The notes under the pieces were generated by a model, which ran no database searches, was not told the DNA's origin, and saw only the letters and a list, made by a program, of their open reading frames with translations. DNA of 34,021 bases from a virus: the IMG/VR virus record IMGVR_UViG_3300035034_002581; one strand, given 5' to 3'. Within the stretch, counting starts at the first letter, position 1, and every line of letters starts with the position of its first letter. Below, one piece after another: positions 1,419-34,004 of this stretch. The position numbers and the translations under genes were made by a program.

Positions 1419-1991
1419 TCAATATCCAAATCTAGCAGTGTCTAGTCGGTTCTTGGCAAGCATAATCTGCTTAACTTCGTTGTATGAAAGAGGTTCATAG
1501 TTATGACTATCAACGCCGACGTCTAGTGAAAGCATATCGTCGCGTTCAGGAAGGTTCCCGTGACTGTGACCATACAGATGCCAAGATTCCCATCCACACT
1601 TGTCCCAAGTTCGACATGCGTAGTGAAACATAAAGATCCTCTGTAGATCATCGTGTGCATCTGTATCAGGAATCTTTGCAATGTACAAATCTTTAATCCA
1701 GCCAAACTGTTTCTTGAACTCTTTGTTTTTAATGTTTCGTCTATCATGATTACCAGCGACGAGGAGTTTATTTCCATTAAGACAACTGAGGTGCTTAGCT
1801 GCTTCACGGGCATCGCAAACTGCAACGTCGCCTATAATATACACATCATCGCCCTTTGAAACTTTGCGATTCCAGCGTTTAATCAATTGCTCGTTCATGT
1901 CGTCAACGTCTTCAAAGGGACGATTACAATACTTGATGATGTTCTTGTGACCAATATGCAGGTCAGCTGTGTAAAATGTTTCTTTTGTCAT
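1419..1991 (-). CDS. calcineurin-like metallophosphoesterase
   Basis: It carries the DLHIGH, GDxxD (IIGDVAV), GNHD and GHSHG motifs of the MPP superfamily. ATG start. Confidence 0.75.
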   Translation of the reverse strand: MTKETFYTADLHIGHKNIIKYCNRPFEDVDDMNEQLIKRWNRKVSKGDDVYIIGDVAVCDAREAAKHLSCLNGNKLLVAGNHDRRNIKNKEFKKQFGWIKDLYIAKIPDTDAHDDLQRIFMFHYACRTWDKCGWESWHLYGHSHGNLPERDDMLSLDVGVDSHNYEPLSYNEVKQIMLAKNRLDTARFGY

Positions 1992-2001
1992 GTCAATCTT
2001 C

Positions 2002-2307
2002 TCACGTAGAAAGTACTAGATACTTTTGTTCTATCCACACAGTCAATACACCCCAGGGCGAAATGACTCGCATGTGATGCTTATACTCATTCATACCTTT
2101 CATGTAAGTCCGACCGAGATACTTCAAGATCATTGCATGAAACATTTTAGGCGGAATAAACCTCCAGGCTTCATAATTTAGGTTTTTGATTCTTTTGATG
2201 TACCCTTCGACATGACTTGGTTCTGGAGCGAGATGGCCGTACCTTGGTAAGAAAGTGACTAGGTCAGCCGTCTTAAACTTCACAGGTGTAATCTTCTTTG
2301 TCGTCAT
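2002..2307 (-). CDS. hypothetical protein (101 aa)
   Basis: ATG start with an AAGAAG/AAGAGA SD. It is tightly packed between its neighbours. Confidence 0.5.
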   Translation of the reverse strand: MTTKKITPVKFKTADLVTFLPRYGHLAPEPSHVEGYIKRIKNLNYEAWRFIPPKMFHAMILKYLGRTYMKGMNEYKHHMRVISPWGVLTVWIEQKYLVLST

Positions 2308-2311
2308 TCTC

Positions 2312-2848
2312 TTACTTCTTTCTGCGCATAGACTTGTTGGGCTTTACACTGCGGACCTTTCCTGGGCGCTTACGCCTGCGCTTGCGCTTGCCCTTAGGCG
2401 GCATAGTGAGCAAGTGAGATGCACGACGAGCGCGCCAAGAGCCATAATCGCCCGTCAACCACAGAGTGTAGATCGGTCCATTCTTGACGTCAGGATCAAG
2501 GTCTCTTTCGAACTCGCTAGGCTCAACAGGTCCGTCGCTGATCTCTAGAATCACTGCTTCATGATAAGTCGTATCCTCATCATCGAATGGATTGATCTTC
2601 GTCCAGCACGTATCTCCCGTCGACCACTCTCCCGGCTTGCGTTGCCCTGCATTAGGAAGCTCTTCAGCGCCTGCAAGTCCCTCGTCTACGCAGATATACT
2701 CAATCTTTGACTTGTACTTCTTGTGTTCGCGAAAAGATTCCCAGGCCGCACCCTCAGTGTGCGCAGTAATTCCTGCAGTAGGGTTCTTTGAGCGCTGTCC
2801 GGACTTCTGGCCGCAGCGGAAGATCTTGTAGAAATTGAATAGATTCAT
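2312..2848 (-). CDS. hypothetical protein with a strongly basic C-terminal tail (KGKRKRRRKRPGK)
   Basis: ATG with a strong SD (CAGGAGGTAGC). The basic tail suggests nucleic-acid binding. Confidence 0.55.
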   Translation of the reverse strand: MNLFNFYKIFRCGQKSGQRSKNPTAGITAHTEGAAWESFREHKKYKSKIEYICVDEGLAGAEELPNAGQRKPGEWSTGDTCWTKINPFDDEDTTYHEAVILEISDGPVEPSEFERDLDPDVKNGPIYTLWLTGDYGSWRARRASHLLTMPPKGKRKRRRKRPGKVRSVKPNKSMRRKK

Positions 2849-2867
2849 GCTACCTCCTGATACTTCT

Positions 2868-2898
2868 ATTGTATCATACAGGTCAAACTTTTACACAT
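2868..2898 (-). promoter_or_regulatory. promoter-like motif, variant ATGTGTAAAAG-N15-TACAAT (minus-strand orientation)
   Basis: It lies in the 70-nt gap upstream of gene 2312..2848. It is a member of the recurrent motif family. Coordinates are approximate. Confidence 0.35.
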
Positions 2899-2918
2899 TA
2901 TCGAAAACAGAATTGGAA

Positions 2919-3356
2919 TCAGTCTGTATTACTGTACTCGTGTCTAACTACCTGTTTTCTGTGCCAAGCACTAATGTAAGCTTCATTACCTCCAGGAGTA
3001 GAATGTGGAATCTGTTCGAAACATTCTCCGATTCCATCTGACCATTGACCCTGTGTATAATCAATGAGTGCTGCTAGCTCAATGTCTGACAATTTTTCTG
3101 TAACTGTATATGTTGTTTCTGAGTATAGGTAACCTGTGTCTGCTCTATACACAAACGTTAAATCGCCACTTGAGGTAACTTTTGTCAACACCGACGCTTC
3201 GACTTCTTTGTTCGCTGTCCAGAAATACTCCAAAAATGTAGATGACTCGTCTGATGTCATGTTAAGAGATTTAAGTTCTTGTGTCGTCGCGGCTCGACAC
3301 GTGGGTTCTCCGCAATCGATGTTTACTTCGCTATCGCCAATGATCGTTAATAACAT
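2919..3356 (-). CDS. hypothetical protein (145 aa)
   Basis: ATG with a CAAGAGG SD. Confidence 0.5.
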   Translation of the reverse strand: MLLTIIGDSEVNIDCGEPTCRAATTQELKSLNMTSDESSTFLEYFWTANKEVEASVLTKVTSSGDLTFVYRADTGYLYSETTYTVTEKLSDIELAALIDYTQGQWSDGIGECFEQIPHSTPGGNEAYISAWHRKQVVRHEYSNTD

Positions 3357-3416
3357 TTTTGCCTCTTGTTGGAATTGATTCTAGTGTGTGAGAAGGGTTA
3401 TAAATATGACTTGTTT

Positions 3417-3431
3417 GATATCCAGAATGAT
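3417..3431. promoter_or_regulatory. perfect 15-bp palindrome CCAGAATGATTCTGG (possible operator)
   Basis: It has 7-bp arms around a single central base. It sits in the 131-nt intergenic region upstream of gene 2919..3356. Coordinates are approximate. Confidence 0.3.
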
Positions 3432-3487
3432 TCTGGAGCGTTTTTACCAGCTAAAATGCTAGTTACCAAATCAAAAACGCGAAAATC

Positions 3488-3706
3488 CTACAGATACTCG
3501 AAGATGGAATTAAAGCACTCAGGTGCAGGGGCCCAGTCGCGGCGTCTACTAAGAGATGCTTCGCAAACATCTGTATGATTTTGCAATAGGGTTCCGTCTG
3601 GGAGAATTACTTTGACTACAAAAGGCTCCCACCAGCAAGTGCCTTTACTAGATGCTCTAACAATGCAAACAGTTCCCGCTTTTAATTTTGTTGAAAGTCG
3701 TGACAT
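3488..3706 (-). CDS. possible +1-frame continuation of 3657..3959 (72-aa ORF, no SD of its own)
   Basis: It overlaps the upstream ORF by 50 nt. This frame is open back to the A8 tract. A fused product would be about 156 aa. Confidence 0.3.
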   Translation of the reverse strand: MSRLSTKLKAGTVCIVRASSKGTCWWEPFVVKVILPDGTLLQNHTDVCEASLSRRRDWAPAPECFNSIFEYL

Positions 3707-3959
3707 AGAAGTCTTGTATTCTTTTTTTTAAGAAAGCAGTGTCAGGAACCTCTTTAACGATAATCATTTCACCGACACGGTGTTCTATAAGAAACCGTGA
3801 CAAAGTGCAGGCGGTGCTTGACAGAACATTACCTGTTATAGAGTATTGACCAGTTGGATTGTAGACACCAAAATGCAGCATTCTTGAATAATAGAATAGC
3901 TTTATTACAATTGTCCTTACAGCTAATGTGAGAACACTTACTTTTTCAAGGTCTGCCAT
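3657..3959 (-). CDS. hypothetical protein (100 aa); may continue by a +1 shift into 3488..3706
   Basis: ATG with a CCAGGAGTC SD. An A8 tract (plus-strand T8 at about 3722-3729) lies 21 codons before the stop. Confidence 0.5.
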   Translation of the reverse strand: MADLEKVSVLTLAVRTIVIKLFYYSRMLHFGVYNPTGQYSITGNVLSSTACTLSRFLIEHRVGEMIIVKEVPDTAFLKKRIQDFYVTTFNKIKSGNCLHC

Positions 3960-4278
3960 ACAATTTGACTCCTGGAGTCAAAAACCTGAATTTTGATATC
4001 GGAGCACGCGGTCGAATGCTGTCGTATGTATATCTACTATCAGGTCCGAGAAGGTATTGCCGTTTTTTATCATCACAAGGATAAATATTCCCACTTCCTG
4101 ACATGACACGCACTCTATGTCGATACCACGGATAATTATGATCGTCTTTTAATTGCTCCCAATACTCGCTTATGATGATAAATATTCTGTCTTGTGCGTA
4201 CAAATCAAATGTTTCGTCTTCGAATGCCAAAAGAGATGACACATTGTCTGTGTCAGGCAATCGTCTATGCCATCTCAT
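3946..4278 (-). CDS. hypothetical protein (about 110 aa; the track's longer GTG start at 4404 is less likely)
   Basis: The ATG at 4276-4278 has a GAGGGAGAG SD 5 nt upstream and overlaps the ligase stop by only 14 nt. The 4404 start would be GTG with a 140-nt overlap. Confidence 0.5.
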   Translation of the reverse strand: MRWHRRLPDTDNVSSLLAFEDETFDLYAQDRIFIIISEYWEQLKDDHNYPWYRHRVRVMSGSGNIYPCDDKKRQYLLGPDSRYTYDSIRPRAPISKFRFLTPGVKLYGRP

Positions 4279-6202
4279 CAAACTCTCCCTCAGAGATAAG
4301 GGTAATTCCGAGTGCTTTAGCACTCTTAGCTTTGGAGCTCGTTGATCCAACATCAGCGATAATAAGGAAGTCAAGTCCACGTCTGACGCTTGTTTTGTAC
4401 TCACCGCCAGCTTCCGTAATTACAGCTTCGAATTCTTTCTTAGTCCTGCTTAGTTTCCCTGTGATGCAGAAACTCTTTCCTGATAATGGTCCGTTGTTGG
4501 CTTGAGTGTTAATAGGTCCTTCAACGATCTCAAGTACACGATGCAGGTTCTTGATAACAGATTCATTCTTCTTGAGGCCTTCAACAATCAGGCGACCTCT
4601 CTCTTCACCGAATTGCTCAATTGAAGCAATCTGAGATTCAGTAGCAGCGAGCATCTTGTCGCTGGTGTCGTAGCCTGCCTCAACCATCATTCGGGCGAGC
4701 GATCGGCCAAAAGACTTGATGCCAAGTGAACCAATTGCAATACTAAGTGGGATGACCTTCTTAGCGTGAAGATTATTATAAGCACGCTTTGCAATACCAG
4801 GAGAAGTTGCACGTTCAATGTCTGCTTGAGTAAGCTTGTAAATGTCAGCGATGTTGAACACCATCTTACGCTCAACAAGAGCATTGATGACTGATTCGCC
4901 GAAGAACTTCACCTCAATCTTCTCAACCCAGCGTCTAATCGTGCCTGCAAGCAATGCTTCGCAAAGAGGATTGACACACTCAAGGTACTTATTGTCCCAC
5001 ACAAGATCGTTGCTGCACGACGGGCAACTCGCCGGTGCTGCAAAGAACCCGCGAATCTCAAGACTATCCGTTCTCTTGACGACTTGAGGGATCACATCGT
5101 TAGCACGCTTTACAAGCACATCGCAGTTCGGTGCTAAGTTAAGTGCCTTTACATTGTCCCAGTTGTGGAGCGATGCTCTCTTGACTGTTACACCACCTAG
5201 CTCAATAGGCTCAAGAAGTGCAATAGGTGTTACACGTCCGCCTTTGCCAAGGTTCCACTCAATGTCCACCAGCTTTGTTTCACGAGCTTCAGCTTCGAAC
5301 TTCCATGCAACTGCAGACTTTGGATTCTTGCCGCTTCGTGTGCTTGACTGCAGCTTCTTCTCCAGCCTAGCAGCTTCATCCTTACTGTCAACCTTGATTA
5401 CAAGACCATCGATTTCATACGGAAGATTTGCACGCTTTGAACCAACATACTCATTGTAGATCTCAACAATTCGATCGATGCTAGTCACACGTTCATAAAA
5501 TGGAACTTTGTAGCCCGATTCCTCGAGCATCTCGAGAGTACGTGACTCTAAAATATCTGGCAGATCCATGCCATCAAAGTAGTCATAGGCAACAAATGTC
5601 AGAAACTCGCTACCTACGCCGTCGAGGCGTCTTGCAGTTCCAGATGCGCCGTTCCTGGCATTCTTGTAAGGCTCATCTCGCCACTTTCGCTCGACGCAAA
5701 CATCATTGAAGGCATCAAAGTCATCTGCGAACATCATAATCTCACCGCGAATAAAGTGAGGTGTAATATTGTCAACAGAGAATCTATCAGCGCCATTCAT
5801 CTTCAAGACGTTTCGAGTAATATCTTCACCCTTGTCGCCACCGCCGCGAGTTACAGCTCGAAGGAGCTTTCCGTCATTGTACTCGAGGCTGTTAGAGATG
5901 CCATCCATCTTCTCTTGGACACAGTATGCAGATGCTGGTCGCTGACGGAGCCATTCACGAAGCTCTGCTTCAGTGTTAACCTTATCTAGTGACGTCATCG
6001 GGATCTTGTGCTCGATAACTTCCCAGTGTGAGTTGTCATCAACAGGCGCGCCGACTTCAAAAAGTGCAGCGTTGTCAGGTTCAGCAGTGCGAAGCTCATC
6101 TACCCATGCATCGAAAACATCATCATCAACTTCTGGGTTCCCGTTGTAGTAAAGCTCACGATTCTTACGAATCTGACGCTCAAGTTGATTAATTCGACTC
6201 AT
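4265..6202 (-). CDS. ligA: NAD-dependent DNA ligase (LigA-type) with a C-terminal BRCT domain
   Basis: It is 645 aa with a KMDG adenylation motif (EKMDGIS), the LigA-typical layout of OB, zinc-finger, HhH and BRCT regions, and an FCITGKL BRCT signature. ATG with an AAGAGAGGTA SD. Confidence 0.9.
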   Translation of the reverse strand: MSRINQLERQIRKNRELYYNGNPEVDDDVFDAWVDELRTAEPDNAALFEVGAPVDDNSHWEVIEHKIPMTSLDKVNTEAELREWLRQRPASAYCVQEKMDGISNSLEYNDGKLLRAVTRGGGDKGEDITRNVLKMNGADRFSVDNITPHFIRGEIMMFADDFDAFNDVCVERKWRDEPYKNARNGASGTARRLDGVGSEFLTFVAYDYFDGMDLPDILESRTLEMLEESGYKVPFYERVTSIDRIVEIYNEYVGSKRANLPYEIDGLVIKVDSKDEAARLEKKLQSSTRSGKNPKSAVAWKFEAEARETKLVDIEWNLGKGGRVTPIALLEPIELGGVTVKRASLHNWDNVKALNLAPNCDVLVKRANDVIPQVVKRTDSLEIRGFFAAPASCPSCSNDLVWDNKYLECVNPLCEALLAGTIRRWVEKIEVKFFGESVINALVERKMVFNIADIYKLTQADIERATSPGIAKRAYNNLHAKKVIPLSIAIGSLGIKSFGRSLARMMVEAGYDTSDKMLAATESQIASIEQFGEERGRLIVEGLKKNESVIKNLHRVLEIVEGPINTQANNGPLSGKSFCITGKLSRTKKEFEAVITEAGGEYKTSVRRGLDFLIIADVGSTSSKAKSAKALGITLISEGEFDEMA

Positions 6203-7328: not shown

Positions 7329-7619
7329 CTATGATGTTGCGCGCTGCCACTTATTAAGACGAGAAATTCGTGTGGCACCGTGACTGATGATGTGTGATTT
7401 GATCACAGGGAAGAAATACAGGCTCTTTCCCAGTGAACGGGTAATAGTGTCGAGCAAAAATGCATCAGTCACGTGAAGTAGAGCAGGCTCATTATCAGTG
7501 AGTTCGTTCCACTTAGGAATAATCTGTGTCCTAACATACAATTCTGCAATCTGCTTATCAGTGTGACCTTTGAGCTTCAAAATCAAAAAGTACAGGCTCA
7601 TTGTGATTAGGATACTCAT
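7329..7619 (-). CDS. hypothetical protein (96 aa)
   Basis: ATG with an AGAGGAAG SD. Confidence 0.45.
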   Translation of the reverse strand: MSILITMSLYFLILKLKGHTDKQIAELYVRTQIIPKWNELTDNEPALLHVTDAFLLDTITRSLGKSLYFFPVIKSHIISHGATRISRLNKWQRATS

Positions 7620-8032
7620 GGCACTTCCTCTGCTTTGGTATGTAGCGTGATCTCAGAACTTCCGACGTGCTTTGATTCCCCGCTAAAAGTCAACACTAAG
7701 TATGCTGACCGTCTTTTAATCTGCTTGACAGAAACAACAAGCGCTTTATCCCACTTATTCGGATCTTTCCGAATGTAATAAGATCGTGGTCTTGCTTCCA
7801 AATACCCTTTTTTTAGTTTTGAAGATACAATCTTGTCAAATTCGACGCTTGCTAAAACTGGATCGTCGAATTTTTTAACACTTGTTGTTCCACGTGAGTC
7901 AATTGACCCATATTTTGTAGTGTACGACGTGTCGGTAGTTCGTCGAATCATCCAGAATTTATTGCTTCTGCCGCTAATAAACTCTAAGTAGATCGATTTT
8001 TGTTCAACGATATCGCCGGCTTTGATATTCAT
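7616..8032 (-). CDS. WGR-domain-like protein (138 aa from the ATG at 8032)
   Basis: The segment NKFWMIRRTTDTSYTTKYGSIDSRGTT...FDKIVSSKLKKGYLE matches the WGR pattern (KFY/W ... GRIG ... KGY). The ATG sits 2 nt after the upstream stop (TAAGCATG). Confidence 0.4.
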   Translation of the reverse strand: MNIKAGDIVEQKSIYLEFISGRSNKFWMIRRTTDTSYTTKYGSIDSRGTTSVKKFDDPVLASVEFDKIVSSKLKKGYLEARPRSYYIRKDPNKWDKALVVSVKQIKRRSAYLVLTFSGESKHVGSSEITLHTKAEEVP

Positions 8033-8034
8033 GC

Positions 8035-8307
8035 TTAGTCCCAGTCCCATGGGTTTACTGATTCATCGAGCAAGGGTGATGCGTAATTGTCCCAGTCATC
8101 GTTGAGCTGAGCGATCTTCATCTTGTACTTGACTTTCGATCGGTGAATCTTGTTATAGAAATAATTAGATGGGAAAAAGTAGTTCCGTCTGCGGTTGAAA
8201 AAGCCTTCTCGTAAGCTAACGAACTGTCTTGTCTCACCACGTCTGTAGTTGATATGCATGTTGCATTCCTTAGTTAGAGTAACTAATGTATATCGAACCT
8301 CCTTCAT
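8035..8307 (-). CDS. hypothetical protein (90 aa)
   Basis: ATG start. A TATAAT-containing promoter-like region lies in the 76-nt gap upstream. Confidence 0.45.
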   Translation of the reverse strand: MKEVRYTLVTLTKECNMHINYRRGETRQFVSLREGFFNRRRNYFFPSNYFYNKIHRSKVKYKMKIAQLNDDWDNYASPLLDESVNPWDWD

Positions 8308-8383: not shown

Positions 8384-9010
8384 TTAGAACCAGTGCGGTG
8401 CAGGAGTGTGGCGCCAAACAGCGATGGCGCGTTTGTACTTTTTGTAGTATGTTCGGTACGCGTCAATAGCATCAGCACACTTGACATCGTCTGGCATAGC
8501 TAGTGGTGGTTGAACAAACGGAGTTTGTGAAAATGTGCATGGCACGTTAGCAGATAGATGCTCGAGAACATCTTGTGTTTTGTGACGTCGGTGATAACGA
8601 TAAGTGTACTCTTCAGCTAGCGCAATTCCAAGCTTGCATGTATACTCGTAGTTTGCTTTGCTTGAGCGAACCCATACAGCAGTTGGATGATTGATGTGTG
8701 TTGGTGCGTATACTTTAGTGTACATAGAGTCGGGCAGCAACGTAGCACATAGCTTGCGAACTTCTCTTAGATTCATTTCGTATGCTAGATTTTCGTCGTG
8801 CCCTGCAATTCGAAGGTGGGTTGCTGAGATTTCGCGCCAAAGGTCAGCCCACTTGCCGTCCCACGGCATAAGACCATATACTTCAGCCTCATTAATCCAC
8901 TGTGCAGTCGACAGCATCTGCGCCAGCTCTACAATCATTTTTACTGCATGTTTGTCGCAGTGATAACTTGCACAAGTCTTAACATCGTGGTCAAGATAGA
9001 ATAGATTCAT
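8384..9010 (-). CDS. hypothetical protein (208 aa); faint resemblance to pyrimidine-dimer glycosylase / T4 endonuclease V-like proteins, not firm
   Basis: ATG with a GGAGAAG SD. The N-terminal ...ELAQMLSTAQW and the C-terminal YRTYYKKYKRAIAVW...PAPHWF loosely recall the ELADQHLMAEY ... WYKYYGKAI of endonuclease V. Confidence 0.5.
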   Translation of the reverse strand: MNLFYLDHDVKTCASYHCDKHAVKMIVELAQMLSTAQWINEAEVYGLMPWDGKWADLWREISATHLRIAGHDENLAYEMNLREVRKLCATLLPDSMYTKVYAPTHINHPTAVWVRSSKANYEYTCKLGIALAEEYTYRYHRRHKTQDVLEHLSANVPCTFSQTPFVQPPLAMPDDVKCADAIDAYRTYYKKYKRAIAVWRHTPAPHWF

Positions 9011-10062: not shown

Positions 10063-10623
10063 CTATTCGTCTCGAGAGCCGATGACATCATGGTATGTCA
10101 CACCTTCTGCAATCATACGACGCTTCAAGATCTTCATCTTCTGCTTGGCACTTCTACGCTTGATGGACGACATGTGCTCAATGAAGGGCTTGCCAAGCAG
10201 GTGATCGAGCTCGTGCTGAAGTGCCTGCGCAAGAAGACCGTCGCCACTTAATGTCTCTGTCGTTCCGTTAAGTGTAGTGTATTCAATCCCGAAAGTTTTG
10301 TGGCGCTTAATCTTAGCCCGCACGCCAGGAAAACTTAGGCAACCTTCCTCTTGCTTTGTCTGTTCTCCTCCTGTTTTGACAGCTTTTGGGTTAATGAAAG
10401 TTTCATACCCATCAAGTGACGGATCAATTGCTTTCGTATTGAGAACAAACATTGAAAGACCTACGCCAACCTGCGGTGCTGCGAGACCAAGTCCTCCAAC
10501 TTGTTCACATGTGTCGACAAGATCAGATGCAAGCTGATGGTGCATGTGTGTAATCTCTGTAATTGCTTTTGCAGGTTCATCAAGCACCTTTGCAGGCCAG
10601 ATTACAATGTTCAGTACTGCCAT
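10063..10623 (-). CDS. def: peptide deformylase
   Basis: All three PDF motifs are present: GLGLAAPQ (motif I), EGCLSFPG (motif II) and HELDHL (motif III). ATG with an AAGGTGG SD. Confidence 0.85.
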   Translation of the reverse strand: MAVLNIVIWPAKVLDEPAKAITEITHMHHQLASDLVDTCEQVGGLGLAAPQVGVGLSMFVLNTKAIDPSLDGYETFINPKAVKTGGEQTKQEEGCLSFPGVRAKIKRHKTFGIEYTTLNGTTETLSGDGLLAQALQHELDHLLGKPFIEHMSSIKRRSAKQKMKILKRRMIAEGVTYHDVIGSRDE

Positions 10624-11158: not shown

Positions 11159-12562
11159 TTATTCTCCCTTCATTTGAATTACAATGTCTGATGGATCGGG
11201 CGTGAAATACAGCTTCCTACCCGGTGCGATGATGTAGCCTCGACGAATTCGTGATGGAGTAGGCTTGCTGCATTCTCCATCAGACAGAATCAAGTAACCA
11301 TCAAAGAGGCCCTTGTTATCGTGGGCGTGGTTCACACATGCCTGGAAGTCTGTACCGCCAGCTCGGAATCGCTCAAGATTAGGCATCGTCTGACCCTTCT
11401 TCCACACAAAACCGTTCTCAACATCCACTTCGGTGTCGAATGGAAAGAAGTGGAACGTAGTCTTCTTGCCAAAGTTACGCAATTCTGCATAAAACAGTGC
11501 TAAAGCTTCATTCGACACTGACCCAGACTGGTCGACGTAGATCGCAATGTTTGCAGTGTAGTTACGTGTACGACCTGGGAAGACATGAGGAAGCTTTCTG
11601 TTAACACGCTTTCTCGTACTCTTTCCGCTAGAGCGACGGGAGCGGCCGAAGAATTGGCGAAGAATTACACGCCAATCCACTTCAGTTGAGACCATAGAAC
11701 GGAGCTGACTTCTCATATGCTGTGGAACTGATCCCCAGGCGTTTGATCCGTCTGCCTTGTTGACTGCGTCTCGCAAGATGTTGGACAATTCTCCTTCAAG
11801 CATCTGTCGAACTCCGTCGGAGATCTCACCCTTAGAATTACCGTTCTCGTCGCAGTCTTGACCCCAATTTCCGTGATCATCTCCGCCAGAAAGAGCACGC
11901 TGTAGTGCTTCACCCAGCATCTCTTCAAGCTTCTGCTGCCTTTCCTCGGCTTCCTTGATCATGTCCTTAACTTCATCGTTTTCCATGAACGCAAAGAAGT
12001 ATTCTTCAGCAGTCAAGAACGGGTCAAACGACTCGACAAGTGTGCTGATCTTCGTAAAGCGTGCCTTCTCCTCGTCAGACATTTCAGCCCAATCTTCAGG
12101 TTCAGGCACCTTCAGCTTCTCACCGGGAATAAAACCACCATCAGGAAGCTCATCGCGAGGGATACTGCAGTTGATTGAGAGATCAGCTGCCCAGTTCCAA
12201 ATCATGTGTGGCTCAAGTGCACGGAACGTTACGTGATCGTAGTTCAAGTGATAGACTTCGTGCTTGAGCAATCCCATTACCTTCTTATGAGAAAGTGACG
12301 CAATGAAGTCTGGGTTCCAGAAGAGTGCTGGGCGCGTGGCCTGGATTCCGACGCCGGCGGTTCCGATCTCACGTGTCTTGTGCCTGTTCATTGCACGATA
12401 GAACGTCGAGAAAAACGGTTCGTTCCAGTAGAGCTGAATGAGGTGTGGTCCGAGGTCAATCTCGTCATTGATAGCACGCTGCTCATCGGTGAGCTTCTTG
12501 CTGATCCCCTTGAACCGCCCAGTACCATCTTCGCCAGTGTTAATCTTTTTGGGTTGAGCCAT
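11159..12562 (-). CDS. VWA-domain protein with an N-terminal putative zincin-like (HExxH) domain; partner of the MoxR-type ATPase
   Basis: It has an HEVYH motif in the N-terminal half and a C-terminal VWA domain with a DxSGS MIDAS motif (YVDQSGSV). ATG with a GAGAGGAGA SD. Confidence 0.75.
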   Translation of the reverse strand: MAQPKKINTGEDGTGRFKGISKKLTDEQRAINDEIDLGPHLIQLYWNEPFFSTFYRAMNRHKTREIGTAGVGIQATRPALFWNPDFIASLSHKKVMGLLKHEVYHLNYDHVTFRALEPHMIWNWAADLSINCSIPRDELPDGGFIPGEKLKVPEPEDWAEMSDEEKARFTKISTLVESFDPFLTAEEYFFAFMENDEVKDMIKEAEERQQKLEEMLGEALQRALSGGDDHGNWGQDCDENGNSKGEISDGVRQMLEGELSNILRDAVNKADGSNAWGSVPQHMRSQLRSMVSTEVDWRVILRQFFGRSRRSSGKSTRKRVNRKLPHVFPGRTRNYTANIAIYVDQSGSVSNEALALFYAELRNFGKKTTFHFFPFDTEVDVENGFVWKKGQTMPNLERFRAGGTDFQACVNHAHDNKGLFDGYLILSDGECSKPTPSRIRRGYIIAPGRKLYFTPDPSDIVIQMKGE

Positions 12563-12587
12563 TTGTATCTCCTCTCTTTACTTAACT

Positions 12588-12631
12588 ATTATAACATATG
12601 TGCCGATGGAATTGCACACCCCATCGGCACA
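12588..12631 (-). promoter_or_regulatory. 11-bp-stem hairpin (TGTGCCGATGG/CCATCGGCACA) whose loop carries GTGTGCAATT, followed by N16-TATAAT
   Basis: It lies in the 85-nt gap between the MoxR-like and VWA genes. It may act as a combined attenuator/terminator and promoter. Approximate coordinates. Confidence 0.4.
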
Positions 12632-12647
12632 TTGTTTTCTTAAGAGG

Positions 12648-13739
12648 TTACGACTGGTTCTTAAGTGCGTCTGCCTTGTCAACAACGTCCATGATCTTCT
12701 TGGTGAAAGAAGTCTTGTGGAAGTTCTGGATGTTATCCATGTTGCTCGATGCCGCAACGTGCTTGAAGACAGTCAAGTAATCCTCACCTGACATCATCTT
12801 AGAGAAGCGCTCAAGGTTGGCGAACTGATCTTCGGTCCAAGTGTTGGCAAGGAGGTGCTCACCAAGCTTGTCGATGACAGAAACCACTGCGTCGTGAGAG
12901 AGTGCCTCAATGTCCTTGATGCGAGCATCGTAGTTGTCGAGAATATCCTCAGCAGACACGTTGCGCTCGAACTTCTGGACGAAGTGAACGAAAGCGGAGG
13001 CAGCTTCAACTCCAACCAAAGAGGTGCAAAGCTGGTAGAAACCAGCAGGAAGTTCGTCTTGGCCTGCACAGTCAATTGGCGCCATCCCGGCGTACTTTAG
13101 ATCATTGTTGACAAAGCCCCACGAACGAGGAGTCGGATGTGCTGACATGGCCTGGATGCTGTCAATATCCTTGTTTCGAAGGTGCTTGCGGTTGGTTCGA
13201 ATGAACTCGATAATGACAGGGTCAATATCTGCACTCGCTGCCCAATCAAGCCAGTCCTCAGCAGTGGGGTCGAAGTGGAAAATAGCGAAGCGGTTGAGCA
13301 ACGCAAGATCCATTTCGTTGACAGAGTAGTTAGAACCTGCGTTGACGCAGGCAATCACACGAGTGCCGGGGTGGAGCTTGTTTCCGTTCATCTCACGGTC
13401 GAGCACGATCTGGAATGCAGCGTTCATGATCTCAGGAGTCGCTCGGTTGAGCTCGTCAAGGAGCATGTTACATGCATTGTCACAACCCTGCTTAAACCAA
13501 TCCACAGGAAGGAACTGAGTAACGTCGTCACTGATGCGGGGGATTCCGATCATGTCACCTTCCGTCATCTGAGCGAGACGGCGGTCAATGAAGGGAATCG
13601 AGCTATCGATTTGGCGGGCAATCTGCGACTTACCGATACCGTGTGGACCGATGAGCAAGATTGCTCGGTTGGTGGGCATAACACGAAGAAGATTGACAAG
13701 GTCCTTCGCATTGATAGTAGGATGGGTCGAACCGGACAT
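12648..13739 (-). CDS. MoxR/CobS-like AAA+ ATPase
   Basis: Walker A is LLIGPHGIGKS, and the length (363 aa) and layout fit MoxR/CobS. It pairs with the VWA gene downstream. ATG with a CTGGAGG SD. Confidence 0.8.
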   Translation of the reverse strand: MSGSTHPTINAKDLVNLLRVMPTNRAILLIGPHGIGKSQIARQIDSSIPFIDRRLAQMTEGDMIGIPRISDDVTQFLPVDWFKQGCDNACNMLLDELNRATPEIMNAAFQIVLDREMNGNKLHPGTRVIACVNAGSNYSVNEMDLALLNRFAIFHFDPTAEDWLDWAASADIDPVIIEFIRTNRKHLRNKDIDSIQAMSAHPTPRSWGFVNNDLKYAGMAPIDCAGQDELPAGFYQLCTSLVGVEAASAFVHFVQKFERNVSAEDILDNYDARIKDIEALSHDAVVSVIDKLGEHLLANTWTEDQFANLERFSKMMSGEDYLTVFKHVAASSNMDNIQNFHKTSFTKKIMDVVDKADALKNQS

Positions 13740-13823: not shown

Positions 13824-14054
13824 TTAAAATGACTGAAGAGAATTAGTGCTTACTGTGACTTTTCTGATCAGATGATCAACAGGACCTTCAAAGATCTTAT
13901 CTTCAAACGGGTAATCTCGACCTAGCGGATCTAAAGACACATGCGTGACATAAACATTCCCTTTTGTCGAATGTGGGTTTGAATAAACTTCTACGTCGGC
14001 TCCATTCCTTGCATGTTTAGCAGAGAAGAAGCCATACTGAATCTGATTTGACAT
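13824..14054 (-). CDS. hypothetical protein (76 aa)
   Basis: ATG with an AGGA SD. Confidence 0.45.
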   Translation of the reverse strand: MSNQIQYGFFSAKHARNGADVEVYSNPHSTKGNVYVTHVSLDPLGRDYPFEDKIFEGPVDHLIRKVTVSTNSLQSF

Positions 14055-14065: not shown

Positions 14066-14806
14066 TTACGGTACGATGTTGAAGCCGTCGGCTTGCAACT
14101 CAAGGTGCTGGTCAAACCCTGCACCACCGAAGCGGTTCTTTGAAGTGAACAGACGACGACAGCCATGATACTCAGACTTTTGGTTATCAATGACCGAGAG
14201 CTCGACGTGAGCATCGCACATGTGTCGAAGCTTGTTACTGCCGTTCATCTTGCCATCTTTATTGACCTGGCCGATGACGAACACGTTGGCATAAGTTTCC
14301 TTGGCATACTCGGTAAGCGCCTTGAGAGCATGCTCAGAGGTCTTTGACGTAATTCTGCCTGAGTTCCAGCGACTGTCTTGCAAGCCCTGAAGGCTGTCAA
14401 TGATGATTACTGGGTGACGGTACTTATTTGCAGAGCACTTGCGGTATCGATCGAACTTTGCAATGAGCGTCCTAACATCCTTCTCTTGGCCCATACCAAA
14501 CTTAGCATCTAGCTTTAGACGCTCGACGGTCATCTTGGTCTGGTATGCTGACTCTTCAACTCCATTGTAGATGACCGCGCAGCCAGATGCCTCAAGATTT
14601 GCTGCAAGTGTCAACATCATGGTTGACTTACCGGCGCCAGGGGTTCCAGTAAAGAGCGTCACGACTGACGGAGTCATTCCCAAGCCACCGAGCGCGACAT
14701 CAATGTATTCTACGCTGGTCGCGATACGACTCTTAAGTGCGGCTGGAACCTCGAGCTCAGAAATATCGGTTCCGAAATCAATTTCGCTTGCAACGTTCAA
14801 ATCCAT
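14066..14806 (-). CDS. RecA-core ATPase (Sak4/RadA-like recombination protein)
   Basis: It is 246 aa with Walker A GTPGAGKST and a RecA/KaiC-like core (VFVIGQVNKDG). ATG with an AGAGGTAA SD. Confidence 0.65.
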   Translation of the reverse strand: MDLNVASEIDFGTDISELEVPAALKSRIATSVEYIDVALGGLGMTPSVVTLFTGTPGAGKSTMMLTLAANLEASGCAVIYNGVEESAYQTKMTVERLKLDAKFGMGQEKDVRTLIAKFDRYRKCSANKYRHPVIIIDSLQGLQDSRWNSGRITSKTSEHALKALTEYAKETYANVFVIGQVNKDGKMNGSNKLRHMCDAHVELSVIDNQKSEYHGCRRLFTSKNRFGGAGFDQHLELQADGFNIVP

Positions 14807-21485: not shown

Positions 21486-22268
21486 TTACTTGACCCCTTG
21501 CTGTTCAGTTTTTGTACGAATCTCAAGTACATCTACTTCAGACTGAGTAATTCCATATTGGATGTAATCCTTTTCATCCTCGGTAATACCGAAGCGAAGA
21601 CGAACAATCTTTTCCTCCCTTGGGCTAAGTGACGACAAAGCATCACGAACTGCAGAGATCATCTTCTCCCTGTCAATTGCTTCAATAGGGCTAAAGCTTT
21701 TTGTATCTGGAATTACGTCCTCGAGCTTTCTACCTCCCGATGAGTCGTCACCGATCGGTGTGTCTAGCGAAACAGTAGGTCGGCCTGATGTCATCGTTGT
21801 CTTGACTACATCAACAGATACTCCTAGGATTTCTGCAATCTCTTCTGGAGTCGGAGCTGTTTCAAACTCTTCCATGTACTCCTTTTGTAGCTGCATAATC
21901 TTGAACATGAGACCAGACGCATGAGCTGGCATTCTGATTGTGCGTGAATGAGATGCGATGTGACGACTTACAGCCTGTCGAATCCACCAAGAGGCATAAG
22001 TAGAAAACTTAAAGCCTTTGCGCCACTCAAATCTGTCGACTGCCTTGATAAGTCCAATGTTTGCCTCTTGGATCAAGTCTTCGAGTGAACACCCTCTATT
22101 CTGATACTTCTTTGCAATACTGATCGCCAATCGAAGATTTGATTGCACCATCAGGCTATGTGCATGTTTGTCACCCTTTTCGATCTTCTTAGCGATCTCT
22201 TGCTCTTCCTCCCGAGAAAGTAGTTTGTATCTGCCAACGCTCTTAAAGTAGCTGTTTAGAGCATTCAT
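21486..22268 (-). CDS. sigma-70 family RNA polymerase sigma factor (regions 1.2 to 4) with a divergent region 4.2
   Basis: Region 2 is canonical ([41 protein letters not shown]). Region 3 and region 4.1 (VRLRFGI) are present. The 4.2 recognition helix reads [11 protein letters not shown] instead of TRERIRQIE. The ATG at 22266-22268 has a GAGGTG SD. The track's GTG at 22274 overlaps that SD. Confidence 0.85.
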
Positions 22269-22309
22269 TTTCACCTCACATTCAATTGCGAACTAGTAGT
22301 TTTGTAATC

Positions 22310-22722: not shown

Positions 22723-23436
22723 TTAAAATACCCAACCTTGTCCATGAAACCCACAACAGCGGAAGTCAATCCCTTCATGCTCTTCAACTTGATATGCCTT
22801 GAAGATGTGATGATGACCGAACAACCACAATTTAGGCTTATGTTCTGAGAGCCTGAGGATCATGTCAAAAGCGCGAGGAGTTGGATCATCAAAACGGCCA
22901 GTACGATAAATATCCACTGTGTACGGTGCGTCATGAGTTACCACCACTTCTGGCTTGTGTAAGTTGAAGTTGTCATTAAACAACTCTAAATCTTCGCGAC
23001 TCGGATCTTCTTGAGGCCACCAGACTCTGTGACCGCTTTTTGTAAAATCCCCTCGACCGTCTTGACGATCTGTCGACTTTGCACCTCCGCAGAAGATATG
23101 AGATTTACCGTCAATCTCTAAAACTGTTCCTCGCTTAACATGAAAACAATTAGGAGCAACTTCTACTACACCGGAGCCGTCTGACTCTGCATGTAGAGCG
23201 TCAAGTGCATCGTGGTTGTCGTGATTTCCGTCGCAGAAGTACCAGGGTGCAGTATAGATCCCGCGCTTGGTCCTCTTTTCAAAGTATGACACCATCTTCT
23301 TGCCGCCGCCAGGCCACAGAATGCCAAAGTCACCTACTTGTACAATTGCTGAGTGGGCTTCTTTTAATGCCTCTGTTTCAATTCGATGAAAGTGCTTTAG
23401 GTAGCCGTGTGTGTCACCAGCGTAAAAAATACTCAT
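22723..23436 (-). CDS. calcineurin-like metallophosphoesterase (second copy)
   Basis: It carries the GDTHG, GDFGI, GNHDNHD and GHHH motifs. ATG start. Confidence 0.75.
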   Translation of the reverse strand: MSIFYAGDTHGYLKHFHRIETEALKEAHSAIVQVGDFGILWPGGGKKMVSYFEKRTKRGIYTAPWYFCDGNHDNHDALDALHAESDGSGVVEVAPNCFHVKRGTVLEIDGKSHIFCGGAKSTDRQDGRGDFTKSGHRVWWPQEDPSREDLELFNDNFNLHKPEVVVTHDAPYTVDIYRTGRFDDPTPRAFDMILRLSEHKPKLWLFGHHHIFKAYQVEEHEGIDFRCCGFHGQGWVF

Positions 23437-24091: not shown

Positions 24092-24457
24092 TTAGTCAGT
24101 ACTAAAAGTAATTATCGCGTACTCAACCTCTTTATCAGTGTTCCATACTGGATTTATCTCAATTTGTAAAACAACTTTTTCTCCGTTCGCAGTCTTAATA
24201 GATACATTATCTGGGTTTGATGTCACTCCTATGAAAGAATGATGAAGTTGATCATCAATCAGAGACAAAAAATCGATAATTGACTTGCCGAGTAATTTTT
24301 TTGCAGACTTATTTTGAAAGCGAATTGTAAGATCTTTGCGAACTATACAAAATGCTATTGGCACTGCATTCAAGAATAGTTCATACTCTTGCTTTGTAAT
24401 TGCTTTTTCAGAAAGTATTGAAGCAAGATTTCTTAGTTCTTTTAGTCTTTCGTTCAC
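24092..24457 (-). CDS. PAS-domain-like small protein (121 aa)
   Basis: The sequence PIAFCIVRKDLTIRFQNKSAKKLLGKSIIDFL ... VVLQIEINPVWNTDKEVEYAIITF follows the PAS pattern. The start is GTG, with an AAGGAAG SD 7 nt upstream. Confidence 0.45.
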   Translation of the reverse strand: MNERLKELRNLASILSEKAITKQEYELFLNAVPIAFCIVRKDLTIRFQNKSAKKLLGKSIIDFLSLIDDQLHHSFIGVTSNPDNVSIKTANGEKVVLQIEINPVWNTDKEVEYAIITFSTD

Positions 24458-26011: not shown

Positions 26012-27812
<1,801 letters not shown>

Positions 27813-28209: not shown

Positions 28210-29007
28210 TTATCTTACAAGGCTTGAAAATGTGGCGGTCCATTTATTCCAAGTTTTCTCTTTAGTCATACTATCGAATTCAAACTCTTGGAATTTAGAT
28301 CTAAGCGAATCCCAGTCTCCATTTCCCTTAAAGGTAGTCAAACCATCTACTTCGTGGAGCATGTCTTGAAGTTGAATGAGAGAGAAGTTGCGCTCTTGTT
28401 GCATCTTAAAGTTTTCATCCTTCATTCTTTCTGCTAACAAGTCTGGGTTGTTAACAAGTTTTTCTGCCGTCTTGTCACCAATACCTTTGATGCCCGGAAT
28501 GTTATCAGTCTTGTCTCCTCGAAGAGACTTCCACAGCAAGTAGTTGTAGTCAGGAGCAGGAACGACTTTTTTCTTAATTGGATGCCAAATTGAAGTATTC
28601 TCTAGGTCGTCGTAGACCTGAATAAAGTCTGTGTCCGTCGAGACAATAAAGACGTCGTTTTCACTGTCGTATTTCTTAGCAAGAGAATAGATGACATCAT
28701 CAGCTTCATAGTCTTCATGGCGAATAGACGTAATAGGCATCAGTTCTCTCATCAGTTTCTCAATGATGTCACGTTGCGTTCTAAACGTTTCTGGAGAGCG
28801 CTCTCTATTGCCCTTGTAGTCTGGAAGTAGAGTCTGATTGCCTTTGGGAATGCCTTCAAGTACGAAGTATGCCACATCAGGATTGATCTTTTCTACAATC
28901 GGCCTTAAACCTCTAAAGAAGTTGAACACAATATTGTGTTCACCTTTTCCAAACCCGAATCGTGCGCGATGCATCAAGTTGTATGCGTCTAAAATTAAAA
29001 CTCTCAC
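28210..29007 (-). CDS. flap endonuclease / 5'-3' exonuclease (T4 RNase H / Pol I 5'-nuclease family)
   Basis: The N-terminus VLILDAYNLMHRA, the acidic clusters (DVFIVSTDTDFIQ) and a helix-3-turn-helix GIKGIGDKTAEKL are typical of FEN/53EXO. The start is GTG, with an AAGGAG SD 7 nt upstream. Confidence 0.8.
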   Translation of the reverse strand: MRVLILDAYNLMHRARFGFGKGEHNIVFNFFRGLRPIVEKINPDVAYFVLEGIPKGNQTLLPDYKGNRERSPETFRTQRDIIEKLMRELMPITSIRHEDYEADDVIYSLAKKYDSENDVFIVSTDTDFIQVYDDLENTSIWHPIKKKVVPAPDYNYLLWKSLRGDKTDNIPGIKGIGDKTAEKLVNNPDLLAERMKDENFKMQQERNFSLIQLQDMLHEVDGLTTFKGNGDWDSLRSKFQEFEFDSMTKEKTWNKWTATFSSLVR

Positions 29008-29610: not shown

Positions 29611-29615
29611 TTCAA

Positions 29616-30976: not shown

Positions 30977-30997
30977 GCCTTACCTCCTGTTACTGTT

Positions 30998-31029: not shown

Positions 31030-31035
31030 AATATA

Positions 31036-31389: not shown

Positions 31390-31436
31390 TGCTTTTAAAC
31401 TCCGTAGTGCCAACATAATCTGATTGACTATCAATG

Positions 31437-32450
31437 TTAATCAAGGTCAACACTTTCTACTTTTGACATGATTAGCTTGACATAAGGATGTTCAGGAGAG
31501 TCAGCAAGACCAGTTTCTTTAATGTGATTTAGAACACCTGTAACTAATGACTTTTTTAATTCATTCTTTATGTTTTCAAGTGCTGACGATTCCATTGAAG
31601 CCTGCTCAGCCTGATCTATATCTGAGGGTACTGATAGATTAATTGTCTTACCCGTGAGATTTGTTAGTTGCTCTAATGTTTCAACTGACTCTATATCTGA
31701 CATGGCTTTGTCAAATTTATTTGCTGTCTTTGATGACATGTCATCAGACTTACTAATAATTCTTTTGGCACCCTGACTGTTTTTAAGAATGTTCTGAACT
31801 TCCGGACTGTTTAAGAAGAACTCAACAGATTCTGAGGAGACACTTTCAACTAAGACTCTACTTTCACGAAGTGCATTCAGCTGCTGAACCATTCCTTTCC
31901 AGTCATTTCTCTTCTTCTTTGTATTGAGCTTGCTGTCTTTGTTTGTCTGATAAAGCTTCTTAGCTGCAGCTGCAAGAGCACCCGCACCTGGTGCTCCAAT
32001 CAATGCGCCTGCAGCGACAAGGGCCGTTGATGGGCTTTTTGTTGCTAGATCTGTTGCAACATATAAGACAGGGTTGAAAAGAAATGCCATCTTTCTTACA
32101 CCAGTATCTGCATCACTCGACACTGTTTCCCAAGCTTTCTTTGTTGCTGGGTCGTTTTCAATAGCTCTAATTGTCTCTTCTTCATGCTTGACAATGCGAT
32201 CTAATTCCATATCAGACCAAGGCATAAGAATCGATAGTGTTCCACTAATTAGCTTGAGAGCAGCAGACTGTGTTCTTGCAGATAGTTTTTGAAGCTCTCC
32301 ACTTATTACCTTTCCTGCATCTTGAAATGGCTTCAGAAACATGTCTCCAAGATCGGAACCATAATCACCAAATGCAGCACCTCCACCTGTTGTTCTCTCT
32401 GACAATGTTTCTCTAACATATTCTCTAAGAAGGTTTTTGCTATTTTTCAT
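31437..32450 (-). CDS. hypothetical protein (337 aa) with a central Gly/Ala-rich hydrophobic segment
   Basis: The ATG at 32448-32450 has a GAGGAA SD. The track's GTG at 32465 overlaps that SD. Confidence 0.55.
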   Translation of the reverse strand: MKNSKNLLREYVRETLSERTTGGGAAFGDYGSDLGDMFLKPFQDAGKVISGELQKLSARTQSAALKLISGTLSILMPWSDMELDRIVKHEEETIRAIENDPATKKAWETVSSDADTGVRKMAFLFNPVLYVATDLATKSPSTALVAAGALIGAPGAGALAAAAKKLYQTNKDSKLNTKKKRNDWKGMVQQLNALRESRVLVESVSSESVEFFLNSPEVQNILKNSQGAKRIISKSDDMSSKTANKFDKAMSDIESVETLEQLTNLTGKTINLSVPSDIDQAEQASMESSALENIKNELKKSLVTGVLNHIKETGLADSPEHPYVKLIMSKVESVDLD

Positions 32451-32476
32451 TACGTCGTTCCTCACTATTAACTATT

Positions 32477-32722
32477 CTATCTCTCTTTCTGTTTCAGTAT
32501 TAACTGGATGCCAGTCAGTTTTTTATACTTTGAACACAGTTCTTTTTCAAATTCATTTAGGCTCTGCTCTTTAGTTTTCGGATCCCTTGTAGAAAATAGT
32601 GTTCTAAGTTTTGGTGGTAATTGAAGCAAAAGAAGCTTCTTAACAACCATCCAATCATCAGTATCTTCCAAGATAATAGCAGCTTCTTTGACTTCATCTA
32701 GAATTCGTTTAGGTAATGCCAT
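32477..32722 (-). CDS. hypothetical protein (81 aa from ATG; the track's TTG extends to 32809)
   Basis: Internal ATG with a weak AAGAG SD. Confidence 0.4.
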   Translation of the reverse strand: MALPKRILDEVKEAAIILEDTDDWMVVKKLLLLQLPPKLRTLFSTRDPKTKEQSLNEFEKELCSKYKKLTGIQLILKQKER

Positions 32723-32849
32723 TTTGTCTCTTTCTGTTATAGGGTTCAATTCAAATCTTACAATACTCTTCAATCTTGTTTTATGAAGAGTGACATTTTT
32801 AGCTAACAAAATGATTTTGAAATTAAATTAAACACCACATCAAGACTGC

Positions 32850-34004
32850 TTATCCTTTAATAATATTCCTGATCAAATTTCTAAGTGATTCAGAAAGAGA
32901 ATGATCTTTAATATACGACACAGCACGCTGCGCGTTTTCAGGATCTCTATCAAGATAAGGTGCCACGTAGTCTTTGTACGAAGTAATGTATTTCTTTAAT
33001 TTAGGATCTTTAGCCATGTAATCTACTAGATCCTCGAACGTACCCACACTCTCAGGACTTGCTCCTATGCCCAAGAACTCAAGTACCTTTGATGGATCGT
33101 TGACTCTTGGAACTACAATCTCTTTGCCACGTGCTACTTGGAGTCCTCCAGGAAAAGAGATTGTCATCTTAATGTTATTTCCAAGCGCTTGTTGTTCAAT
33201 AGATCTTTGCTTTGCAATGTGTGCGAGCATAAGGTTACGATATACACCCTTCACGCGATCATCACCAGTTCCAGACATCATCCATTCAGTATTATCAGGT
33301 GTCTGTGTGAACATAATGTCAATTTGAACATACTCTTGCGTAACCTTACCGGACGGCGTAATGATAGGGTACATAACAGCAGCAAGCTGCCCCACAGCTT
33401 TTACTTTCTTAGCATCATATATCTGCCCAGCATTTTTAACAAATTCTTTCTTGAAGGCCGTCTTGTTACTCTCTCCTATTCCAACAGCAATGTCAAGGTC
33501 GCCTGATCTTGACTTCTTGCCCGTACTTCCTAACATTTTGTATTCTTTGACTCCAACAGGATTCAGTACAGCCTTCAAGAAGTGGTCAAGAGTAGACTTA
33601 ACATTCTCTTTGTCGATCTCAGTGGTAAGTCCTCCATTTGCATCCTTGAATGCATTACCTCCTTCACTTAATGACTTTCTAGTACGCAACCTTAGTAGAC
33701 GAGCTCTATTTTCTTTTATCTTTGCAGGGTTTGCACCGTATGCAAAAAATCCTCTAAGTTTGTTGATAGGAGTGAAGAGGCCAGTAAGCTTACGTGTTTT
33801 ACCCTTCCACTGAAATACGATGCCTTCCACAGACTTTTCAAAGAGTTCTTCTTCACCCACACGATTCAGTGCAACCTTAATTCTTTCAAGCTGCTTAGGA
33901 TCTGCAAGTAGATTTCCGCTTTCAAATGCACTTCGAACCTTTCTAACAAACTGTCGCAAATCATCGCCGCTTTCAGTCCTGTTAGACGCTAGTGCAAACT
34001 CCAT
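32850..34004 (-). CDS. family-X DNA polymerase (Pol beta-like nucleotidyltransferase)
   Basis: LGSTGKKSRSGDLDIAV matches Pol beta GSFRRGAESSGDMDVLL (GS ... SGDxDh). A third carboxylate (VQIDIMF, compare RIDIR) follows about 58 residues later. The thumb onset MMSGTGDDRVKGVYRNLMLAHIA matches YFTGSDIFNKNMRAHA. The N-terminal region is about 150 aa. ATG start. Confidence 0.7.
   Translation of the reverse strand: MEFALASNRTESGDDLRQFVRKVRSAFESGNLLADPKQLERIKVALNRVGEEELFEKSVEGIVFQWKGKTRKLTGLFTPINKLRGFFAYGANPAKIKENRARLLRLRTRKSLSEGGNAFKDANGGLTTEIDKENVKSTLDHFLKAVLNPVGVKEYKMLGSTGKKSRSGDLDIAVGIGESNKTAFKKEFVKNAGQIYDAKKVKAVGQLAAVMYPIITPSGKVTQEYVQIDIMFTQTPDNTEWMMSGTGDDRVKGVYRNLMLAHIAKQRSIEQQALGNNIKMTISFPGGLQVARGKEIVVPRVNDPSKVLEFLGIGASPESVGTFEDLVDYMAKDPKLKKYITSYKDYVAPYLDRDPENAQRAVSYIKDHSLSESLRNLIRNIIKG

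Follow-up and report, generated by a model that had tools for sequence, protein, structure and literature searches.

A viral protein combining HxGH, RNA ligase-like, and divergent family-X polymerase-like domains as a candidate for filling and sealing strand breaks

The viral DNA stretch IMGVR_UViG_3300035034_002581 (34,021 nucleotides; hereafter the window) ends, at its right edge, within a gene encoding a protein of 933 amino acids. This protein is built of an HxGH adenylyltransferase-like domain of the NMNAT/PPAT type, an ATP-type RNA ligase-like domain, and a minimal, divergent family-X polymerase core consisting of palm and thumb, and its type is widespread in uncultured viruses and uncharacterized. 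We lean toward a model in which the protein would fill and seal strand breaks, working alongside a conventional DNA repair set encoded by the same phage. The chief interest of the window lies in this HxGH/ligase-like/Pol X-like fusion and in the large, uncharacterized viral family to which it belongs.

The part of the gene within the window had been read, from the sequence alone, as a Pol β-like polymerase of 384 residues at 32850..34004. This open reading frame (ORF) is incomplete, its frame running on as far as the window edge without meeting a stop codon, and on a contig that overlaps the right edge at 99.99% identity across 12 kb the full gene specifies 933 residues, of which the ORF forms the C-terminal part. 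The 384-residue ORF has no match in Pfam at E ≤ 0.1, the proposed check families PF14792 and PF14791 included, nor in PHROG, PDB sequences, or phage records searched by tblastn. Homologs match its two parts separately and the ORF is therefore composite: residues 1 to ∼110 align with the interior of proteins of 410–670 residues and are ligase-like, and residues ∼111–384 align with standalone proteins of ∼270 residues and are Pol X-like. The in-frame residues upstream of the ORF, HAFKN-MEFALASN, match AFRNLEFALASN within the homologs.

Module 1 of the full protein (residues 1 to ∼235) carries the motifs GGGFKPFTTGH and VRGSDVR. Among PDB sequences it is most similar to NadM-type NMN adenylyltransferases (1.5e-3) and PPATs, a similarity confined to the HxGH motif region, and it matches the NCBIfam model cyt_tran_rel at 2.8e-3. 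As the similarity spans only the first ∼35–40 residues, neither a NadM nor a PPAT substrate was assigned. The middle domain has a covalent nucleotidyltransferase fold in which motifs I, IV, and V are all present. Its KxDG motif I lies, together with the HxGH domain, beyond the window edge; its C-terminal end occupies 33735..34021 on the minus strand and contains putative motif IV (EGIVF) and motif V (WKGKTRK). The match to Pfam PF09414 covers motif I alone and, at 19.4 bits, falls below the cutoff of 27. Directly after the ligase-like domain, and ∼45 residues ahead of its GS motif, begins module 3 (residues ∼660–933; 32850..33674, minus strand), a divergent family-X (Pol β-like) palm and thumb with an extra C-terminal helical bundle. 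It contains GSTGKKSRSGDLDI and VQIDIM, which provide three carboxylates, and YRN on the thumb helix.

The assignment of module 3 to family X comes from structure and profile comparisons. An AlphaFold2 model built on 48 sequences has a pLDDT of 93.7, and the top 50 PDB matches returned by Foldseek are all Pol β or Pol λ (E ∼6e-6 over ∼209 columns), with TM-scores of only 0.41–0.45. The best structural matches are Pol β, TdT/Pol μ, African swine fever virus (ASFV) PolX, and Pol λ, in each case with the thumb included and with 10–19% sequence identity to the solved family-X polymerases in the structure alignments. Profile-profile comparison (hhalign) with 39 genuine mini Pol X sequences, described below, gives 94.2% probability and an E value of 1.1e-7 over positions 1–157 of 164. 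This alignment pairs MGGNAF of module 3 with MGGKAH of mini Pol X, GSTGKK..SGDLDI with GSYRRGK..CGDLDIV, VQID with VQVE, and the thumb helix YRNLMLAHIAK with HNIKLRRVAK, such that a thumb homologous to that of Pol X is present by both approaches. GSTGKK..SGDLDI and VQID are invariant in alignments of 48 and of 20 sequences, and neither family clade departs from the three catalytic carboxylates, although identity falls to 22%. An Asn aligned with Pol β N279 is kept in most members (Pol β numbering, here and for R283 below). The equivalent Asn is 92.9% conserved in canonical PolXs (PMC9226535).

On these profiles and this predicted structure, module 3 is a genuine, if highly divergent, minimal core of family X, for which template-directed synthesis is predicted. 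It aligns best to Pol X, thumb included, rather than to a non-polymerase nucleotidyltransferase (NTase), and to this extent the sequence-only reading of a family-X enzyme at the right edge stands. Matches of designer PPR proteins to 32850..33250 (E = 1e-18) were rejected as artefacts, in which a stretch worth ∼10 bits is summed over nine identical repeats. The C-terminal extensions of the homologs in contigs L008, L012, and P0005 are mutually dissimilar.

Two further family-X genes lie outside the window. A 165-residue mini Pol X is encoded at L002/L088:6304-6801, ∼3.9 kb beyond window position 1, on both contigs that overlap the left end (a 77.5-kb contig at 99.8% identity and a contig from the sample of L001 at 100%), and belongs to the same phage population as the window. 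It exceeds the Pfam cutoffs (25 for each) for the thumb, PF14791 (72.1 bits, 3e-20), and the palm, PF14792 (34.4 bits, 3e-8), and matches NCBIfam PolX at 1.9e-17; the third carboxylate position is Glu (VQVEFY), not Asp. The mini Pol X family comprises 39 clusters, every member having 162–179 residues, and its genes occur in 12 of 50,697 phage records, a few of them already annotated as family X. Beyond the right edge of the window, directly upstream of the 933-residue gene and overlapping its start by 4 nt, is a 434-residue paralog of module 3 (L001:4025-5329). It aligns to module 3 at 96% in hhalign (E = 3.9e-9), bears the motifs GSTAYY..YGDVDYLV..VQVD, and has homologs in L008, L012, and L033.

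The Pol X-like module is found in 1,197 representative clusters at E ≤ 1e-3 and in 507 at E ≤ 1e-10 (of 1.84 billion), almost all of them viral, and at a minimum of 543 confirmed IMG/VR loci. The representative genomes of 185,579 species yield only eight loci, all on contigs of metagenome-assembled genomes, and cultured phages yield no match. Within this family the Pol X-like NTase is near-obligately coupled to a ligase-like domain. Seven loci of the window's clade preserve the order HxGH, ligase-like, Pol X-like, whether the modules are fused or encoded by neighboring genes. At ∼63 further loci the module is either the N-terminal part of a fusion with DUF6267 or is followed by DUF6267 (for example, L045:9977-11914 and L055:10914-12014), and all 63 of 63 such partners have KWDG within their first 120 residues. 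The DUF6267 alignment closes with a conserved GGEGYV..KVKLVPR stretch, and from the KWDG and EGYV..K.K motifs we infer that DUF6267 is also ligase-like. The DUF6267 profile has no match among PDB sequences and our literature search found no paper mentioning the domain; it is labeled "hypothetical protein" in 187 cultured phage records, mostly of T4-like cyanophages (such as Cyanophage S-RIM44, S-CAM9, and P-RSM6). The gene downstream of the fusion in the window, 31437..32465, was considered as a DUF6267 or C-terminal partner, and no similarity was found.

Gene neighborhoods differ between clades. The main-clade fusions lie in a conserved block made up, in order, of a Toprim primase, DnaB, the PolX-like/DUF6267 fusion, a virion protein, IscU/IscA-like genes, a PHROG-298 exonuclease, and a tail spike (L017, L020, L023, L037, L045, L075, and others), with no family A or B DNA polymerase visible in the 20 kb covered at these loci. 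In L009, a gene related to T4 endonuclease V (DenV) lies ∼700 nt upstream of a standalone Pol X-like module. Only L014:13751-17319 (14 genes) and L010:465-1746 (three genes) have tRNA arrays close to the ligase-like and Pol X-like genes, at distances of no more than ∼3 kb.

From these domains and their arrangement we infer a scheme in which the Pol X-like module would extend a 3′-OH by one or a few nucleotides and the ligase-like module would then adenylylate the 5′-phosphate and seal the nick. Blocked 3′ ends would probably be cleaned beforehand by MPE1, a calcineurin-type metallophosphoesterase encoded at 1419..1991 (minus strand), a role suggested by gene order in related phages, where it belongs to this cluster: a homolog of MPE1 (37% identity, E = 4e-33) is located, in L008 and L012, between the 434-residue-type paralog and the HxGH/ligase/PolX-like genes. 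The conventional DNA set acting beside the fusion would comprise an NAD+-dependent ligase (LigA), a flap endonuclease (FEN), a RadA-like ATPase, a DenV-like protein, and the mini Pol X.

Apart from the mini Pol X, the genes of this conventional set lie in the window, all on the minus strand. LigA (4265..6202) contains domain Ia and the adenylation (8e-45), OB (6e-25), Zn-finger, HhH, and BRCT (1.5e-10) domains, with an intact KMDG motif and Cys4 zinc finger, and matches PHROG 3869 at 9e-141; a LigA-type ligase with BRCT had been called at this position, correctly. The 5′-3′ exonuclease/FEN proposed at 28210..29007 is likewise borne out, as both domains of the Pol I N-terminal type exceed their Pfam cutoffs (PF02739 5_3_exonuc_N, 1e-24, 87.4 bits against 34.3; PF01367 5_3_exonuc, 4e-11, 43.7 bits against 40) and its NCBIfam matches are of the Pol I and Xni type. 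The two calcineurin-like phosphoesterases are also real. MPE1 matches PHROG 547 ("phosphoesterase") at 1e-49 and, although below the Pfam cutoff, keeps its DxH/GD/GNHD/GHxH motifs. MPE2 (22723..23436), for which no evidence ties it to repair, exceeds the cutoff of PF00149 (5e-11), matches PHROG 1649 at 1e-35, and has all of its metal-binding motifs intact.

Two other assignments of the sequence-only reading hold in part. The 246-residue protein at 14066..14806, proposed as a RecA-core recombinase, has a RecA-superfamily core with Walker A, Walker B, and KNRFG, and matches KaiC and DnaB_C in Pfam. It is closest to the core of bacterial RadA/Sms (TIGR00416, 8e-26), at 90.7 bits against a full-length cutoff of 403, and lacks the Zn-finger and Lon-like domains. 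A RadA/Sms-like homolog sharing 53% identity with this protein (L007:19127-19855) and a mini Pol X gene are 9 kb apart on an unrelated viral contig. The protein at 8384..9010, said to have faint endonuclease V-like features, borders on the T4 endonuclease V (Pyr_excise) family. It matches PHROG 624 ("DNA binding protein," 3e-46); its own score against PF03013, 16.8 bits, is under the 23-bit cutoff and it has no match among PDB sequences, but 34 of its 40 aligned homologs match PF03013, the best at 2.4e-7. N2 and E28 (in KMIxE) are invariant in the 40 sequences and, in a register set by eye, would correspond to Thr2, with the catalytic N-terminal amine, and the active-site Glu23 of T4 endonuclease V. 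We regard this protein as a candidate pyrimidine-dimer glycosylase/AP lyase. Two genes from it, and ∼1.4 kb from LigA, a small protein with a WGR domain is encoded at 7616..8050 (minus strand; PF05406, 1.7e-12). The WGR domain of PARPs senses DNA breaks, and by analogy this protein might act as a break sensor.

Several observations weigh against this fill-and-seal scheme. Every member of the family is known from sequence or predicted structure alone. The ligase-like fold is nearest to RNA ligases and, unlike DNA ligases, has no OB domain by Pfam or by the secondary structure of the model, and the hhalign match between the ligase domain of the window's clade and DUF6267 is weak (E = 0.035, improving to P = 0.0032 at a probability of 9.9%). 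Module 3 has no HhH, fingers, or 8-kDa domain to hold gapped DNA; the lack of fingers and 8-kDa domains excludes only a full-length architecture, since ASFV PolX also lacks them. In the hhalign register, the N279-equivalent Asn is replaced by His in one subclade and the position of R283 is Ala. With a mini Pol X and LigA already in the genome, a second DNA fill-and-seal pair looks redundant. In the genome of the window itself, 31 kb separate MPE1 from the fusion gene, and the scheme leaves the HxGH domain unexplained.

The same features bear on the nature of the substrate. The homology to family X, the replication context of the main clade (primase, DnaB, and exonuclease), the DenV-like neighbor in L009, and the precedent of a viral Pol X-ligase fusion, PgVPolX (PMC5537341), favor DNA. 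The Rnl-like ligase fold with no detected OB domain, the redundancy with mini Pol X and LigA, the pairing of RlaP with RNA ligases (PMC7824862, PMC12776372), and the tRNA arrays of L014 and L010 favor RNA. We consider DNA, or DNA with a LigD-like ribonucleotide patch, slightly more likely; such a patch would, speculatively, reconcile both sets of evidence. An alternative that we hold possible but doubtful is repair of RNA, specifically tRNA, in which the ligase-like domain would be a true RNA ligase, the Pol X-like module would restore nucleotides lost from cleaved tRNA ends, as RlaP does, and MPE1 would remove 2′,3′-cyclic or 3′-phosphates, together countering host anticodon nucleases in a manner analogous to T4 Pnkp/Rnl1 with NrdC.11. 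A pattern of Pol β-type NTase, RNA ligase, and phosphoesterases is established in jumbo phages (PMC7824862), RlaP is RNA specific in vitro (PMC12776372), and DNA is already served by mini Pol X and LigA in this genome. However, no match to PF10127 (RlaP) was obtained for the window ORF at E ≤ 0.1 or for the 933-residue protein at E ≤ 0.05, module 3 is nearest to family-X DNA polymerases by structure and profile and keeps the thumb, and the main-clade fusions reside in a replication module between DnaB/primase and exonuclease. Genes for polynucleotide kinase, 2H, RtcB, and KptA were not seen in the window or its flanks, and the window, L001, and L088 contain no tRNA genes. Far less probable is that there is no repair module, the Pol X-like domain being a non-polymerase NTase of signaling, toxin-antitoxin, or modifying type and the other genes the unrelated housekeeping of a large phage. 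Noncanonical PolXs without polymerase activity do exist (PMC9226535), and searches of PDB sequences by hidden Markov model, with the module 3 profile among the queries, return no Pol X. Yet all three catalytic carboxylates are invariant, the thumb aligns in structure and profile comparisons alike, and near-obligate pairing with a ligase-like partner over ∼70 loci is hard to explain for a signaling NTase.

The sequence-only reading had instead combined these genes into a single ASFV-like base-excision repair (BER) toolkit, in which the DenV-like protein would incise, the phosphoesterases would clean the 3′ end, Pol X would fill, FEN would remove flaps, and LigA would seal. We judge such a toolkit unlikely. 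Much of its inventory is in place: a genuine mini Pol X lies 3.9 kb from the window, LigA, FEN, and both phosphoesterases are intact, the DenV-like proteins form a family related to PF03013, and the DenV-like, WGR, and LigA genes fall within 5 kb of one another. Viral BER with a Pol X and a ligase is also documented (PMC5537341). Nevertheless, the AP endonuclease or further glycosylase that the earlier reading had proposed to look for was not found in the larger ORFs of the window or in ∼21 kb of flanking sequence at the sensitivity of Pfam and PHROG, many small ORFs matching nothing. The 8-kDa 5′-deoxyribose phosphate (dRP) lyase domain is absent from both Pol X versions, the DenV-like protein is under its Pfam cutoff with no PDB match, and the genes are spread over 33 kb among those for a chaperonin, a sigma factor, a deformylase, and MoxR/VWA proteins. 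Lagging-strand replication accounts for LigA and FEN (PMC9503650), and scans of related viral contigs for the joint presence of LigA, FEN, and the DenV-like gene gave no informative result. Given this dispersal and the failure to find an AP endonuclease, the evidence does not establish a BER module of the ASFV type. That the Pol X of the window is fused to an RNA ligase-like domain points instead to a distinct system for filling and sealing, with RNA as a possible substrate. The view that the set is unusual for a phage holds for Pol X, given its rarity among phage records, and not for LigA and FEN, which phages ordinarily carry for replication: 1,257 phage records have a LigA match, and LigA is reported from 32% of jumbo phages (PMC9503650). 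The strand-break repair gene set of this phage, taken as a whole, is unusually rich.

The fusion can be compared with several known systems. ASFV Pol X (O174L), like module 3, lacks fingers and the 8-kDa domain; relative to it and to phage mini Pol X, module 3 has no Pfam match, a C-terminal helical extension of ∼70 residues, and a ligase-like fusion partner. PgVPolX of Phaeocystis globosa virus is similarly a single viral polypeptide with a Pol β-like core and a ligase, in this case NAD+ dependent, and its polymerase, lyase, and ligase activities were shown to act together in repairing single-nucleotide gaps (PMC5537341). Its ligase is C-terminal and of the LigA type and its Pol β-like core is full, with dRP-lyase activity, whereas the 933-residue protein has an Rnl-like ligase N-terminal to the module (an order reversed in the DUF6267 clade), an extra HxGH domain, and LigA as a separate gene. 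RlaP (PF10127) is likewise a Pol β-superfamily NTase genetically coupled to a ligase and phosphoesterases (PMC12776372, PMC7824862). It has three conserved Asp residues and an NTase domain followed by a helical domain, and acts on RNA only; in contrast, module 3 has no PF10127 match, a β sheet thumb, and a fold nearest to family-X DNA polymerases. The nick-sealing RNA ligases T4 Rnl2 and Naegleria NgrRnl (Rnl5) share 12–15% identity with the ligase-like domain, which differs from them in a helical insertion of ∼200 residues before motifs IV and V, a score under the PF09414 cutoff, and its fusion to HxGH and Pol X-like modules. Bacterial LigD, of non-homologous end joining, resembles the present system in that a nucleotide-adding domain, a 3′-end-cleaning phosphoesterase, and a ligase are fused or clustered. 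LigD adds ribonucleotides and seals 3′-ribo nicks. Its polymerase is of the archaeo-eukaryotic primase type, its phosphoesterase is differently folded, and its ligase has an OB domain, all unlike the system described here, in which no Ku gene was seen.

Since polymerase-ligase repair fusions are already known, we do not rate the 933-residue fusion as a categorically new system. Tentatively, the Pol X-like module and its ligase-like partner (Rnl-like here, DUF6267 elsewhere) could constitute an unrecognized, essentially virus-specific polymerase-ligase system of ∼1,200 representative clusters, which may serve LigD-like break repair with a ribonucleotide patch or lagging-strand gap filling and nick sealing; DUF6267 would then be an unrecognized polynucleotide ligase. 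Family-X polymerases are regarded as rare in viruses beyond ASFV and the giant viruses. Here, a single phage genome has three genes related to family X, one of which defines a large viral family that lacks annotation and almost always has a ligase-like partner domain. If filling and sealing are confirmed, phage biology would gain a new polymerase-ligase repair system and DUF6267 a function. It would also hint at the means by which abundant aquatic phages repair damage from UV or nucleases, or escape host defenses based on nicking or tRNA cleavage, and could provide compact polymerase-ligase enzymes for biotechnology.

All long ORFs of the window are on the minus strand and its GC content is ∼42%. 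Its relatives are IMG/VR viral contigs, a megablast search with 14 kb of the window having no match in phage records, and the overlapping contigs imply a large uncultivated phage with a genome of ∼100 kb or more. The window additionally encodes a GroEL-type chaperonin (26012..27622), a sigma-70 factor (21486..22274), a peptide deformylase (10063..10623), a MoxR AAA ATPase with a DUF2201 metallopeptidase/VWA partner (11159..13739), and a PAS-like protein (24092..24457), together with numerous ORFs of no known family. Synteny of the GroEL and sigma genes extends to the relatives L008, L011, and L012. Beyond the left end of the window, a 74-nt direct repeat lies among small ORFs; its copies, at L088:13068-13141 and 13956-14029, are 97% identical.

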